The notes under the pieces: model-generated
Databases searched by the model: none
The model's input: the letters and a program-made list of their open reading frames with translations, nothing else
Told to the model about the DNA's origin: nothing
Program-made: the position numbers and the translations under genes
In this document: positions 6,476-11,764 of the stretch, piece by piece
Position numbering within the stretch: position 1 is the first letter of the stretch
Layout of the letters: every line of letters begins with the position of its first letter
Source of the DNA: Candidatus Methylomirabilis sp.
GTDB lineage: Bacteria; Methylomirabilota; Methylomirabilia; Methylomirabilales; Methylomirabilaceae
DNA: 13,053 nucleotides
Direction of reading: 5' to 3'
Assembly: GCA_041498975.1 (NCBI GenBank)
Contig: JBGQJI010000064.1
Location: 1-13,053 of the forward strand

Positions 6476-8161
6476 TTACCGCAAGATCCCGGTCAGCACC
6501 CTGCCTTCACAGCCGTTCGGTGGCCGCACGTTGAGCAGGAACGCCAGGGTTCTGCCGAGATCCACCACCTCGGCGTCTCCGTACTTCCCCGGCTTCACCC
6601 ATTTGCTGCCCAGGAACATCAGCGGCACATTGGTGTCGTAAGTGTAGGGCGCGCCGTGGGTCGAAGCATACGCCAACGGTTTTTCGAACAGGTACCAGTT
6701 CGGCTTGTTGATCAGGACGATGTCCCCGCTATATTGCTGGTGCCACGCTAGGGTCACCTGTCTGGCTATCTTGGTCGGCGGAAGTTTGCCGTTTTGCAAC
6801 TGAGTGCGCGTGTACACGAAGGCGATCCCCGGATACTCGATGAGGAATTGGGCGGCTGCGTTCTCGACATCGGTGCGGTTGAGGTTCTTGCCGTCGATCA
6901 GGTCGTAGTCGAGATACAGGGTCGGATTCCACCAGGCGGTGACATACTTGGCATCGCCGAACTTCTTCGACAGGTGAGCGTTGACCGCCTCGATCATTTT
7001 CTCCGGGTCGATGCGGCCCGCATCGAGATTCTTTGATGTGCTGTACTCGGGGATGTTCATGAAGCCGTGGTCCGCGCTCAATGTGATGAGAACGGTATCC
7101 AACCCGACCCACTTATCCAGGTACTGGAAGAACTCGGCGAACACCCGATCGAGTCGTAACAGGTGGTCTTGGGCTTGTTTGCTTTCCGGCCCAAAAAGGT
7201 GATGGACGTAGTCGTGAGTGGTCCAACTGATCGCCAACAGGTCGGGGACACCGGCGGGGTTCTTGCCGAGGCTCTCGCCCTCGATCGCAGCCTTGACGAA
7301 ATCCAACGTCAGATTGTCACCGTAGGGAGTCCAGATCATCGCGTCGTAATAGCCGGGTCCGGGGTTGTCCGCACCGCCGCTGATGGGGTGGGGGAACTTG
7401 GTGCCCAGCCCTTTGTAATTTTTCGACCATGGGCGGTCGTCAGGAGCCGATCGGGCATACGCCTCATCCTGAAGCAAAGGGGTCCAGACCTCGCCGAAGT
7501 ACCTGTCCTGGGGCTTGCCCGCGTAGAAGCTATTCCACCACTCCGGATACTCCTTCATATAGTAATCGGAAGTGATGAAGCGTCCGGTGCTGGTGCTGTG
7601 CATATAGGCGGTGCCGGCATGCCCTCCAAGTCCGATTGCGCTGCGGTCTTTCCCCGACACCGTGATGACCTTCGATTTGCCGTTGGCGTAAATCAGTTCA
7701 TCTCCCACCGTGGTAACCTTGAGATTGAGCGGCGAAGTTCCCTGATGCTTCTTGGTTTCTTCCCCCAGGTACTTGTGCTTTGGGTCCTCGGTGGAGTACA
7801 CCCGCTCCTTGGTCTTTTTGTCCAGCCAGTCGTTGCCGATGATCCCGTGCTTGTACGGATGGGCGCAGGAAAGCAGTGTGGCATGGCCTACTGCGGTATA
7901 CGTCGTGGCGTGACTGTAGTTCGCGTTGTTGAACCAAGCCCCCTGGTCGAGGAAGCGCTTCAGTCCGCCCTCTCCGAGCAGATCATAGTACTTGACCACC
8001 TGCTCCTGCGGGAAGCCGTCAACAACCATGAACACCACCAGCTTTGGTGGGGCGATGCCGGCGGGCGCCTGGTCGGCAGCCTGGACCAGGCCGGCCGACA
8101 GAATGGCTGAAAGCAAGTAGACGAGGACGGATAACGATCGCAGACGTCTCACGCTTACCAT
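6476..8161 (-). CDS. Secreted alkaline phosphatase superfamily protein, PafA/PhoK-like, about 561 aa
   Basis: Start reassigned to ATG 8161 (GGAGGAGAGACC-ATG; signal peptide ending VQA). Motifs VVDG, TYTAVGHAT (Thr nucleophile), GIIGNDW, KDRSAI (PafA-type Lys/Arg), HDYVHH, SADHG, STHG. Confidence 0.92.
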   Translation of the reverse strand: MVSVRRLRSLSVLVYLLSAILSAGLVQAADQAPAGIAPPKLVVFMVVDGFPQEQVVKYYDLLGEGGLKRFLDQGAWFNNANYSHATTYTAVGHATLLSCAHPYKHGIIGNDWLDKKTKERVYSTEDPKHKYLGEETKKHQGTSPLNLKVTTVGDELIYANGKSKVITVSGKDRSAIGLGGHAGTAYMHSTSTGRFITSDYYMKEYPEWWNSFYAGKPQDRYFGEVWTPLLQDEAYARSAPDDRPWSKNYKGLGTKFPHPISGGADNPGPGYYDAMIWTPYGDNLTLDFVKAAIEGESLGKNPAGVPDLLAISWTTHDYVHHLFGPESKQAQDHLLRLDRVFAEFFQYLDKWVGLDTVLITLSADHGFMNIPEYSTSKNLDAGRIDPEKMIEAVNAHLSKKFGDAKYVTAWWNPTLYLDYDLIDGKNLNRTDVENAAAQFLIEYPGIAFVYTRTQLQNGKLPPTKIARQVTLAWHQQYSGDIVLINKPNWYLFEKPLAYASTHGAPYTYDTNVPLMFLGSKWVKPGKYGDAEVVDLGRTLAFLLNVRPPNGCEGRVLTGILR

Positions 8162-8370
8162 GGTCTCTCCTCCTCCAAGGGAATTGCTTATCCGCGCAGA
8201 ACCTCGGTGGTTATGGCGCCTTGCAGACAAAGGGCGCCAAGTCGATTCTTCGAAATCTTGCGCCCCATTGCTGGTCGCATCCCTCCACACGGGCACTCCT
8301 GTTCAGCGGGTCGTGTCGAGGACGGATCATTTGATTGAAACCCACGGGATCTGTTTTGCGCCCCAACCTC

Positions 8371-8397
8371 ATAATACCCCGAAGACGCCTCTGTCAA
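8371..8397 (-). promoter_or_regulatory. Possible sigma-70 promoter for the phosphatase
   Basis: Minus strand TTGACA (8397-8392) and TATTAT (8376-8371); spacer only 15 nt, so suboptimal. Confidence 0.3.
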
Positions 8398-8521
8398 GGA
8401 AAATCGAGGGCTGGAACGCTTCGGTTGGCGCACCGAAAATCGCTATCAAGTCGAGTTGCAGGCCGGCCAATGGCGCGTCCGCACCCCTTGCCCACCGAGT
8501 CGCCAGTGACGGTCGGACCGG

Positions 8522-8878
8522 TCAAGGAGTTCTCCGGCCGGCGAGGAGCCTTGCATAGGTCAGCTCGTCGAATCCACGAACGATGACATCCCCAACGATG
8601 AGGACGGGGATCCTCAATTGGCCGTCCTCATGAACGAAGGCCCGTTTGAGGTCGGCCTCCGGGATGGCGGCTTCACGTTGATCCCATCGGAGGATCTCCC
8701 CACCCATCTTCACGTACAGCGTGGGGAAGCGCCTGGCGATGTGCATCGCCTCTGCGCTTCGGACCGGACGGCGGTCAACGTCATGATCGGCGTAGGCGAT
8801 GCCGTATTGCGAGAGCAACTCCCTCGCACTGTCGCAGGCAGGTCATCCTGCACGATTGTACAGGACGATCTCGGTCAT
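8522..8878 (-). CDS. ArsC/Spx/glutaredoxin-like thioredoxin-fold probable selenoprotein (UxxC), 118 aa
   Basis: GGAGGAGCC-ATG at 8878 gives MTEIVLYNRAG*PACDSARELLSQYGIAYADHDV...LRIPVLIVGDVIVRGFDELTYARLL; the TGA at 8845-8843 occupies the first Cys position of the CxxC motif; RIPVLIV is the cis-Pro motif and VRGF the ArsC/Grx-like C-terminal motif. The ORF track only shows 8522-8818. Confidence 0.85.
8808..8828 (-). promoter_or_regulatory. Candidate bacterial SECIS hairpin
   Basis: mRNA UGA-14 nt-UGCGAGGG-AGUUG-CUCUCGCA: 8-bp stem (one G-U), apical loop with GU near its 5' side, loop starting 22 nt after the UGA. Confidence 0.65.
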
Positions 8879-8945
8879 GGCTCCTCCGTTTGGGTGTGCG
8901 TCAAATTTGTGGGGAAAGTGCCGCGGACCTTGTGAATCCGTACCG

Positions 8946-8971
8946 ATCTGACAGTACCAGTACTATCAGAT
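8946..8971. promoter_or_regulatory. Operator-like palindrome inside the MITE
   Basis: ATCTGACAGTAC-CA-GTACTATCAGAT, 11/12 symmetric with a 2-nt centre, AT-richer than its surroundings. Confidence 0.35.
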
Positions 8972-8995
8972 GAGATTCCAAGCGGCCGCTTCAAA

Positions 8996-9134
8996 CCCGT
9001 TCACCCTGAGGAGCGGCCCTCTTCCCAGGCCGCGTCTCGAAGGGCGCTCCGCATCCCGGCAGCCCGCACCCGAGCGCTGACGACGCGCTTCGAGACGGCC
9101 GCCAAAAAGACGCGGCCTCCTCAGCGCGAACGGG
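8996..9134. repeat. REP/REPIN-like composite palindrome nested in the MITE
   Basis: CCCGTTCACCCTGAGGAG pairs with CTCCTCAGCGCGAACGGG (16/18), CGTCTCGAAGGGCG pairs with CGCGCTTCGAGACG (13/14); each arm carries a side hairpin (CGGCC-N9-GGCCG; GCCGC-N9-GCGGC). Confidence 0.8.
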
Positions 9135-9243
9135 GGGTTGAGAGGCTGAGATTGACGAAAGCGAAGCCACAAATTTGTCGCACACCACCTCCGTTTACAC
9201 GCCATCGGAACCAATGCGCCCACCGGATCTTGGCTCGCCCCCT

Positions 9244-9267
9244 CTGCCGTCCGCCGAATGACGGCAG
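9244..9267 (-). other. Stem-loop just downstream of the decarboxylase
   Basis: CTGCCGTC-N8-GACGGCAG perfect 8-bp stem, 14 bp after the stop; no U-tract, so not a classical intrinsic terminator. Confidence 0.3.
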
Positions 9268-9281
9268 CGACCTCGCTCCAG

Positions 9282-10592
9282 CTACGCCTCGCCGCTCAAC
9301 TCCATGAACTGCTCCTCCACGGACCTCTTGCGATGCAGCGAGATCCACTCGGCCTTGTCCACCAGGATCGCGTTCGGGATCATCTCCCCGAAGTTCTGGG
9401 CCAATGAAAAGGTGTACGCGCCGCAATTGAACACGGCGAGCACCTCGCCGGGCTCGATCGTCCCGCTCACGAAGGAGACTGGATCGGTCTCTGTCGGCAT
9501 GCAGAGGAAATCACCCAGGGTGTACCGGGTCCGCCCCGGTCGAGGCTGCGAAGGGACGGCCACGTATTCCGCATTCTCGCGCGGAGGAAGGACGTTCCGG
9601 CCCGCATCGACCAACACCCAGCGTCTCCCGCCGTTCTGTTTGCACGACAGGACGCTCGCCAGGCACACGGCGGCATCGTTCACCAGGAACCTGCCCGGCT
9701 CGATGAGAATCTCCCGGTCGCCCTGAAGGCCCTTCAGCGGGTCCATCATGGTGGCGATGAAGCTTTTGAGCGTGTGACCGCGCGCTTCCATGAGATGGCG
9801 GCTCCCGAATCCTCCCCCGAAGTCGAGGACCCGGATCCGGATTCCAAGATCGGCCTCCACACGTCGGACGAATTTCACCACCGCGGCAACGTGCGCCCGG
9901 TGGGCATCCGGCAGGTACTGCCTGGTATAGCTGTGGCAATGCACCGCGCGAAGCGAGAGGAAGCGCGAGCGGGCGATCCGTTTGACCGCGACCGCCGCTT
10001 CTCCGGTCGGCACGTCAAAACCGAATTTCGATCCCGGCGGCGCGAACGGCCCCCGGAGGCGTCGTGACAGCAGCGGGTTGATCCTCAGGCCCACCCCGAT
10101 CGTCCTGCCAGCCCTCAGACCCAGGGCCTCCAGCAAGGCGATCTCAGAGAGTGACTCGACGTTGATGAGGAAAACGCCGTCGGTGACAGCGCGCTCCAGG
10201 AATTCCGGTCGCTTTGCGGGACCGTTCACCACGACCTGATCCGGAGAAAATCCGATCCGTCTGGCAAGAAGATACTCGAATTCCGACATCACCTCGACAT
10301 TGAATCCGGCCTCTCTCACCAGCGAGACAACCCCAACCAGATAGCAGGCTTTGAGGGCGAAGTGGATGCGAATCGGATGGGGACACACCTGCCCGGCGGC
10401 CACAGCCTCTGCGATGTTGTCGCGCAGGCGAGCCGATGAATAGACCAGCAGCGGGGTCCCCAGTTGTTTCAGGATCTCCCGATACGAAAGCGCCTCGATC
10501 CACAGCTTCCCGCCTTCCGTGCGGAATGCCCCGTCATGACGCAGGAAGCGGCGCGTGGCAGATGACGCGAAGAGATATTCGTCGCGGGTCAC
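9282..10592 (-). CDS. Fold type III PLP-dependent decarboxylase, diaminopimelate decarboxylase (LysA)-like, substrate uncertain, 436 aa
   Basis: GTPLLVYS, FALKAC (PLP Lys), NGPAK, NVES, GLRINP, SKFG, HCH, LDFGGGF, EPGRFLV, VDAG, FLCMP (catalytic Cys), GAY. GTG start overlaps the upstream stop (GTGA, 10589-10592). Confidence 0.9.
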   Translation of the reverse strand: MTRDEYLFASSATRRFLRHDGAFRTEGGKLWIEALSYREILKQLGTPLLVYSSARLRDNIAEAVAAGQVCPHPIRIHFALKACYLVGVVSLVREAGFNVEVMSEFEYLLARRIGFSPDQVVVNGPAKRPEFLERAVTDGVFLINVESLSEIALLEALGLRAGRTIGVGLRINPLLSRRLRGPFAPPGSKFGFDVPTGEAAVAVKRIARSRFLSLRAVHCHSYTRQYLPDAHRAHVAAVVKFVRRVEADLGIRIRVLDFGGGFGSRHLMEARGHTLKSFIATMMDPLKGLQGDREILIEPGRFLVNDAAVCLASVLSCKQNGGRRWVLVDAGRNVLPPRENAEYVAVPSQPRPGRTRYTLGDFLCMPTETDPVSFVSGTIEPGEVLAVFNCGAYTFSLAQNFGEMIPNAILVDKAEWISLHRKRSVEEQFMELSGEA

Positions 10593-11764
10593 GATACTTG
10601 CTCTACGGGATTCGGTTCACGGTGGACTCCCGACTGAAGCTCGGCGGCGACCTTCGTGAGCCCACCATGACACTCCTGACGACTGTGGCCGCGAGAGAAA
10701 ACCGTGCAGACCGGCTTGCCTCGGCCTATGCGCTCGCCCTCAGGCGGCAGGTCTCTCGCGCCATGCTCGTACCACCCTCTGGGATCGTGGAAGATCAGAT
10801 CTCCGGTCGCGAAGACGACGGCCTTCCCCAGGTAGTCGGGTGCAGTTGCAGTGTGCGCGCCGAGATCGAAGTCGGAAGGCATCCCCTGGCAGGCGGCCAG
10901 ATGCGCACCGAAGATATTGATCCCATAGGCACGTTCTACGAGCTCCATCGAGGCGGTGTAACGAGGATTGATTTCAAGTGGATAGATCGCTCTCTCCTTC
11001 AGGATGAAGTCCATCCCGTTCGCTCCGACGAGGTGGAATTCTCGCGCAATGGCCCGCACGATCTCTCGCACACCTTTGATTATTTCGGGCCATCGCGCAT
11101 GACGTCTTTGTACCACCGGCCCTAGGATACTGCCGCAGTAGCGAAAGCCGTCCGCCCCGAACTCTTTCTCGCCAACGAGTTGCTCGGAGATCCCCAGCAG
11201 AGTGCAATCCAGGCCGTCCGCAACGAACACCGCGCTACATGCGAGGCCATCCACGTACTCCTGAAAGAACACACCCGGCTCGACTCGGGTCCCTGGAGCA
11301 TGAAACGCGATGCCATGGCCACCGCCGCTGCGCTCGGGCTTGCGCAGCCACCGGGTGTTGGGGTCGAGGTCGGATACCGCTGAGGGGAAGCAGATCTTCG
11401 GCGACGGGATCCCTGCCCGCTCGAGGAACCCGAAGAATCGGGCAGGATCTCTCACTGATGACAGTACCGACGCGCGATTGCCCAACACCGGCTTTCCACG
11501 GCGCAACAGCTCAACCACGGACGGATGGTTTTCGAGGTTGGCGACATAGGCCAGCGCATCGCAGGTCAGGTCTCCGGCCAGAGTGACAAGATGCTGGGGG
11601 CTGTAGGGCAGGCCGAGGTCTCTCCTGATGGATCGACTCTCGCAGAGCAGTTGCAGGTCGAAATCCCCGAAGTAATCGACCGCGATGATCCGATGCGGAA
11701 GCCCGCTCCGAACCGCCGACTCAACCAGGCCGCGCGCGCTCACTCCCGCAATTAGAATGTCCAC
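10589..11764 (-). CDS. ATP-grasp carboxylate-amine ligase (COG2232-like, resembling archaeal/methylotroph C1-cofactor-cluster proteins), 391 aa
   Basis: N-terminus ILIAGVSARGLVESA...VDYFGDFDL, KPERSGGGHGI, FQEYVDG, RYCGSI, GANGMDFIL, LEINPRYTASMEL, GKPVCTV; GTG start with GAAGGA upstream. Confidence 0.85.
   Translation of the reverse strand: MDILIAGVSARGLVESAVRSGLPHRIIAVDYFGDFDLQLLCESRSIRRDLGLPYSPQHLVTLAGDLTCDALAYVANLENHPSVVELLRRGKPVLGNRASVLSSVRDPARFFGFLERAGIPSPKICFPSAVSDLDPNTRWLRKPERSGGGHGIAFHAPGTRVEPGVFFQEYVDGLACSAVFVADGLDCTLLGISEQLVGEKEFGADGFRYCGSILGPVVQRRHARWPEIIKGVREIVRAIAREFHLVGANGMDFILKERAIYPLEINPRYTASMELVERAYGINIFGAHLAACQGMPSDFDLGAHTATAPDYLGKAVVFATGDLIFHDPRGWYEHGARDLPPEGERIGRGKPVCTVFSRGHSRQECHGGLTKVAAELQSGVHREPNPVEQVS

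Follow-up and report, generated by a model that had tools for sequence, protein, structure and literature searches.

A UGA-containing gene for a predicted UxxC selenoprotein of the ArsC/glutaredoxin fold in Candidatus Methylomirabilis and its relatives

The window analysed here (13,053 nt) is contig C64 of a Candidatus Methylomirabilis assembly of 2.68 Mb, which consists of 241 contigs and is 84.9 % complete. On the minus strand, genes encoding PntB, an ATP-grasp protein and a PLP-dependent decarboxylase (LysA-like) are followed, after a gap of 403 nt, by the gene studied here, and then by genes for a PafA-like alkaline phosphatase, a TonB-dependent receptor, a histidine kinase and a sigma-54 response regulator. 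Starting from an ATG (8878-8876), the gene runs through eleven codons (MTEIVLYNRAG) to an in-frame TGA, continues with PACDSAR and remains open up to a second TGA (Table 1). Read-through of the first UGA yields a product of 118 aa carrying the motif U12-P-A-C15. The initial annotation had described this arrangement, with an ATG at 8878, eleven codons, TGA, PAC and then an open thioredoxin-fold frame, and reading of the sequence bears it out in every part. It had also expected standard gene callers to return a truncated 98-aa product, which agrees both with 98-aa database entries and with the plain ORF listing, where a 98-aa ORF starting at a TTG (8522..8818) is the sole entry at the gene. The relatives retrieved from public protein collections (15 matches) are all truncated, with lengths of 74-98 aa, and are either unnamed or labelled 'hypothetical protein'.

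The ATG lies exactly 11 codons 5' of the TGA in 19 of the 20 best related loci, and a GGAG/Shine-Dalgarno element is the sole conserved feature in the upstream regions of five loci from the same genus. A scan of positions 8300-9400 found neither promoters nor terminators. Two long antisense ORFs overlap the gene (8618-8935 and 8160-8558, both on the plus strand) and are probably spurious; the recurrence of an antisense ORF in 12 related loci follows solely from conservation of the sense gene, and the ORF at 8160-8558 has no Pfam match.

Table 1. Positions of the selenoprotein gene and its elements within the window.
Feature	Position	Strand	Basis
Full predicted selenoprotein CDS (118 codons plus TGA stop, 8524-8522)	8522..8878	minus	frame reading; orthologs
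Shine-Dalgarno GGAGGAG, 2 bases 5' of ATG	8881..8887	minus	sequence
UGA codon 12, predicted Sec, putative attacking residue of UxxC	8843..8845	minus	TGA/Cys pairing in 46 family loci
TGC codon 15, presumed resolving Cys of U-P-A-C	8834..8836	minus	invariant in alignment A2; Ser in 9/46 loci
Predicted SECIS hairpin over codons 17-24	8808..8828	minus	stem UGCGAGGG/CUCUCGCA, loop AGUUG; comparative
TTG taken by ORF finders as start; Leu21 of the real protein	8816..8818	minus	ORF 8522..8818; 98-aa database entries
Pro91 codon, proline preceding strand beta3, predicted cis-Pro loop position	8606..8608	minus	invariant in alignment A2; model strand 92-95 next

The genes for the ATP-grasp protein and the LysA-like decarboxylase (9282-11764, minus strand) overlap by 4 nt and probably serve a small-molecule or polyamine-type pathway. 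In four of five loci from the same genus, the genes follow in the order ATP-grasp, decarboxylase, selenoprotein, with the fifth contig beginning inside the decarboxylase gene, and this order recurs within the genus only. In two other families, the neighbours of the selenoprotein gene are unrelated genes of the opposite strand, encoding either NUDIX, a TPP enzyme, TenA, MnmG and a GTPase, or a GDSL lipase, ABC-F and HtrA. Among 19 other genomes of the same genus, the ATP-grasp gene is present in 17, whereas the selenoprotein gene is present in only 4, and three genomes of another family carry the two genes on different contigs. Because the order is limited to the genus and the ATP-grasp gene occurs mostly without the selenoprotein gene, the neighbourhood provides no functional clue, and a functional link to the ATP-grasp/decarboxylase pair was rejected. 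The position behind this pair, singled out as unusual in the initial annotation, is thus real, but its weight as a pointer to function was overstated. The 403-nt gap (roughly 100-265 nt in sister species) is explained by a MITE-like repeat of about 300 nt (8892-9192) between the decarboxylase and selenoprotein genes, with terminal inverted repeats GGTGTGCG-N-CAAATTTGTGG ... CCACAAATTTG-N-CGCACACC and an end lying 5 nt short of the selenoprotein Shine-Dalgarno sequence. Six more copies of this repeat, with 88-91 % identity, are located on other contigs of the genome. In metagenome runs, many contigs end at 8892/8893, and the repeat is covered at up to about ten-fold greater depth.

When the UGA is read through, the product belongs to the ArsC/Spx/YffB branch of thioredoxin-fold redoxins; its core resembles glutaredoxin, and its middle insert takes a form of its own. 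The Pfam Glutaredoxin model (PF00462) matches all 20 family members; the window protein scores 42.3 bits against a gathering threshold of 22.9, with the match covering residues 4-57 only. Among NCBIfam models, NF041106 (ArsC_rel_Se_1, 'ArsC family (seleno)protein') ranks first for all 20 members and aligns along their entire length, although all of these matches are weak (best E = 1.4e-15) and the window protein scores 51 bits, below the curated cut-off of 85. Alignment of the family with an NF041106-type alignment by hhalign gives a probability of 99.7 % (E = 3e-25, 110 columns), and a profile search of the PDB returns Spx (E = 1e-9, residues 4-113), with the Spx CxxC placed on the UxxC. An AF2 model (pLDDT 92.8) predicts, in order, strand 4-8, helix 13-24, strand 30-33, helix 41-50, a beta-hairpin (53-58/61-66), helix 74-81, strands 92-95 and 98-101, and helix 105-112, and Pro91 would occupy the cis-Pro loop position of the thioredoxin fold, facing the active site. 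The top Foldseek matches are Spx, ArsC-related proteins and YffB (TM 0.54-0.59), and a second structural comparison gives Z 9.4-9.9 for Spx over 90-95 residues, Z about 9 for NrdH and glutaredoxins over about 76 residues, and Z about 8.1-8.3 for ArsC proteins. Residues W65, H83, D85 and R101 are invariant and specific to the family (alignment A2). The label 'ArsC/glutaredoxin fold', given before any database search, is therefore apt by Pfam, NCBIfam, profile and structure matches alike, and on these sequence comparisons the family is placed as a full-length sister of NF041106, between glutaredoxin and ArsC/Spx/YffB.

Members of NF041106 resemble the studied family in having about the same length, a U/C-x-x-C at the same place, the motifs G-x-LR-x-P and VGF/RGF, and, over the same codons, a SECIS hairpin with GUU in its loop. 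However, scores in the phylum scan separate the two families into distinct modes (80-185 bits for the studied family vs 55-71 bits), and the NF041106 paralog is only about 29 % identical to the window protein. This paralog is a second ArsC-family selenoprotein of the same genome (locus L032, contig C73:4690-5034, minus strand; G-U-K-T-C; 134.9 bits against NF041106); it lies between tRNA-Sec (C73:2759-2853) and selB (C73:9409-11295), and its SECIS-like hairpin CGCAAGA-GUU-UCUUGUG occupies the codons that carry the hairpin in the gene studied here. Selenoprotein glutaredoxins (PF00462, UxxC) share the UxxC that starts helix 1 and the proline before strand 3, and we take the RGFDE of the window protein to stand at the site of the Grx GG-x-DD. 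However, the window protein measures 118 aa and carries an insert of ~40 residues (helix 41-50, hairpin 53-66, helix 74-81) that is missing from compact glutaredoxins. The Spx/YffB/ArsC structures (1z3e, 6ghb, 1rw1, 3f0i) are the top structural matches and agree in domain order and length, but sequence identity is 20-25 %, and the middle region, predicted to be partly beta in the window protein, is all helical in theirs.

Selenoproteins of this kind already have a place in the literature. Entries in a 2006 survey (PMC1794560, Zhang and Gladyshev) name 'ArsC-like' and 'distant ArsC homolog' selenoproteins, and a 2008 list by the same authors (PMC2398784) contains 'Arsenate reductase (ArsC) 1, UxxS' and 'Arsenate reductase 2, cd03032, UxxC'. 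These ArsC-type UxxC selenoproteins embody the same concept, including the Sec/Cys pairing, as far as rows of the published tables, rather than sequences, can be compared. A passage of a 2026 review (PMC13188914) gives NF041106 as 'Arsenate reductase-like protein, UxxC' and refers to Kim et al. 2011 for a selenoprotein glutaredoxin that was examined by experiment. A literature search that covered some of the likely sources found no paper on exactly this sister family. ArsC-like and Grx-like UxxC selenoproteins are thus already published, and the family described here adds a new, uncurated member to a kind already known. Weak matches in relatives (E 1e-4 to 1e-5) include many short glutaredoxin-like frames across the order, nearly all with one in-frame TGA; these probably represent 'Uxx-star' selenoprotein families (NF041212 and relatives, which the query matches weakly) in selenoprotein-rich genomes.

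The proximity to Spx raises the question of whether the protein could be a redox-sensing regulator rather than an enzyme, with a U12/C15 selenenylsulfide switching its binding to RNA polymerase or another partner. Spx proteins are the best solved relatives by both profile and structure, and the Spx/MgsR family model TIGR01617 is touched by 14 of 20 members. However, all of these TIGR01617 matches are weak (best E 2.9e-7), and the window protein reaches 13.3 bits against a cut-off of 75. On the structural core, glutaredoxin and NrdH nearly equal Spx; in Foldseek, Spx attains a TM of just 0.55-0.59 with an rmsd of 6-8 A; and the beta-hairpin of the model (53-66) falls where the profile alignment to Spx requires a gap. 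In addition, the role of Spx as a regulator is a feature of Firmicutes. An Spx-like regulator is therefore unlikely. A related scenario, in place of a housekeeping reductase, is a redox switch restricted to Methylomirabilota, in which an Spx-like sensor would use a selenenylsulfide, more reactive than a disulfide, to control a binding partner. The near-perfect retention of a 19-nt SECIS across the phylum, against a fall in protein identity to 35 %, may be relevant here, and such a protein, if the reading were true, would be the first selenoprotein regulator; we regard this scenario as distinctly unlikely.

The homology to the ArsC superfamily, with ArsC structures among the matches, also invites comparison with a true glutaredoxin-coupled arsenate reductase using Sec as its nucleophile, and Sec-containing arsenate reductases (UxxS) are reported (PMC2398784, PMC13188914). 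However, only 5 of 20 members reach the Pfam ArsC model (PF03960) at E <= 1 (best E 0.058), so that the ArsC family model itself is not matched, and most members have UxxC rather than the UxxS/CxxS of ArsC. No gene of an ars family was found among the genes scanned around 21 loci (the window genes and representatives of 16 recurrent clusters). An arginine triad is conserved in glutaredoxin-coupled arsenate reductases, but of the possible triad arginines in the sequence alignment, R101 alone is invariant, and R89 is replaced by K or H. An arsenate reductase of this type is accordingly very improbable.

The genome encodes SelA (505 bits), SelB (378 bits) and SelD (399 bits), all above their curated cut-offs, and ARAGORN places a tRNA-SeC (selC, anticodon tca) on contig C73 at 2759-2853. 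SelD (contig C199:1054-1980, minus strand) is a selenoprotein as well: its frame contains a TGA, in GAG-U-ACK, with a hairpin after it. A six-frame search of 61 related genomes was used to read the aligned codon in the best 20 loci, which share 35-69 % identity with the window protein, and codon 12 is TGA in 17 and TGC in 3 of them. When 46 family loci across the phylum were read directly, codon by codon, TGA was found in 36 and Cys (TGC/TGT) in 10, so that the nucleophile position is Sec or Cys in all 46. The TGA forms comprise 34 UxxC and 2 UxxS, and the Cys forms comprise 3 CxxC (one genus) and 7 C-x-C-P-x-S (two genera); with only three genera contributing Cys forms, the number of independent events behind them is small. 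Across 251 genomes of the phylum, a profile scan returned 71 family matches of at least 79.8 bits, 61 with TGA and 10 without; two of the matches (G217, G075) lie in unpublished genomes, and 59 with TGA and 10 without remain when these are set aside. Alignment A2 shows invariant residues both before (L6, Y7, G11) and after (C15, R19, E20) the TGA, and the library protein P0018 reads GCPAC at the Sec site. A contig search with a Cys-containing pattern, which is unsuited to Sec forms, returned one full-length Cys relative and one 13-residue partial match.

Positions 8841-8861 are covered by contigs from four sediment-metagenome runs belonging to different studies, none of which has another letter at 8843-8845; the best-matching run may derive from the source sample, which leaves no more than three independent runs. 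The runs listed for the stretch include no RNA run. The initial annotation had proposed searching for Sec machinery in the genome and for homologs with TGA or Cys at codon 12, and both were found, with selA, selB, selC and selD all present; it had also named a sequencing error as a possible refutation, and an assembly error is excluded by the agreement of the four runs. Taken at the level of sequence, the evidence indicates that the selenoprotein gene is genuine and that its TGA almost certainly encodes selenocysteine. That the TGA instead arose by nonsense mutation, reflects an error of sequencing or assembly or is simply a stop codon, leaving the 98-aa downstream ORF or no product at all, is extremely improbable: gene callers do give the truncated form, and the gene's own terminator is likewise TGA, but the codon is shared among proteins of only 35-70 % identity and replaced only by Cys, the ATG keeps a fixed distance from it, conserved residues flank it on both sides, and the truncated product would be left without strand 1 and the entire active site.

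The putative SECIS element is a hairpin with an 8-bp stem and a loop of AGUUG that begins 14 nt 3' of the UGA. Its core, GCGAGRGAGUUYCUCUCG, is conserved at the same distance from the UGA (14-15 nt) in 36 of 36 TGA forms, with GCU or UCU in the loop of two variants. All seven pairs of the 7-bp core are formed in 33 of the 36 TGA forms and six of the seven in the remaining 3, whereas none of the 10 Cys forms has the full core (6, 6, 5, 4, 3, 3, 2, 1, 1 and 1 pairs kept). Among the Sec genes, the 17 closer ones are almost without synonymous change in codons 18-23 (A R E F L S), with GCG in 15/15, AGG/AGA in 17/17, and GAG, CTC and TCG in 17/17 each, whereas conserved Arg, Leu, Gly, Pro and Val columns outside the hairpin use 2-4 codons each, Arg being mostly CGN. 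Among columns with at least four-fold degeneracy, codon entropy averages 0.13 in the four that lie in the hairpin vs 1.35 in the 22 others (Mann-Whitney p = 0.0012), and Arg19 is AGR in 36 of 36 Sec forms vs 3 of 10 Cys forms. The energy of the hairpin is ordinary (71-nt fold, z = -0.33 vs shuffles), and a covariation test found no compensatory double changes in the stem; because the stem hardly varies, the covariation shuffles are uninformative. An Rfam search of positions 8500-9300 (E <= 10) gave two chance-level matches and no SECIS family. Support for the hairpin is therefore comparative, not thermodynamic, and comes from the synonymous constraint and the loss in Cys forms rather than from compensatory changes. 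The spacing and the G/U-containing loop presumably fit the bacterial SECIS model. A hairpin with a GU-containing loop 14 nt after the TGA had been noticed from the letters alone and is indeed present, and the accompanying statement that SECIS elements lie just 3' of the UGA accords with a hairpin that is conserved, synonymously constrained and degraded in 10 of 10 Cys forms.

Collectively, we consider it very likely that the gene encodes a cytoplasmic thioredoxin-fold redoxin of 118 aa, translated by means of SelB and a SECIS element, with the active site U12-P-A-C15 and a sister relationship to NF041106. By analogy with the known bacterial mechanism, SelB carrying Sec-tRNA(Sec) would bind the hairpin at 8828-8808, 14-15 nt 3' of the UGA, and Sec would be delivered at codon 12 instead of termination. 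Judging from the fold and the motif, Sec12 would face the Pro91 loop from the N-terminus of helix 1 and could act as the nucleophile on an oxidised substrate, e.g. a disulfide or mixed disulfide. Cys15 would then resolve the adduct to form an intramolecular selenenylsulfide, which may be recycled by a cellular thiol reductase system of the thioredoxin or glutaredoxin type. Since 9 of the 46 loci lack the second Cys, not every member of the family can use a dithiol-type cycle. The C-x-C-P-x-S forms (loci L083-L089, genera g12 and g17) have an extra Cys two residues upstream of the Sec position and Ser at the resolving position, and two Sec forms (loci L101-L102, genome G183) read U-P-T-S. These variants suggest that the resolving residue may have shifted, or that a monothiol-type route may operate, in some members.

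The redoxin proposed here is one further thioredoxin-fold UxxC protein, and it opens no new question. According to passages of the 2026 review, Methylomirabilota hold very large selenoproteomes, including a genome with 63 predicted selenoproteins (PMC13188914). The set of 36 Sec forms with an almost invariant hairpin and 10 Cys forms without it is suited to the training of SECIS predictors and to studies of SelB recognition. In addition, a dedicated model with a Sec-aware start would mend the annotation of the family, which has 71 matching loci among 251 genomes of one phylum.
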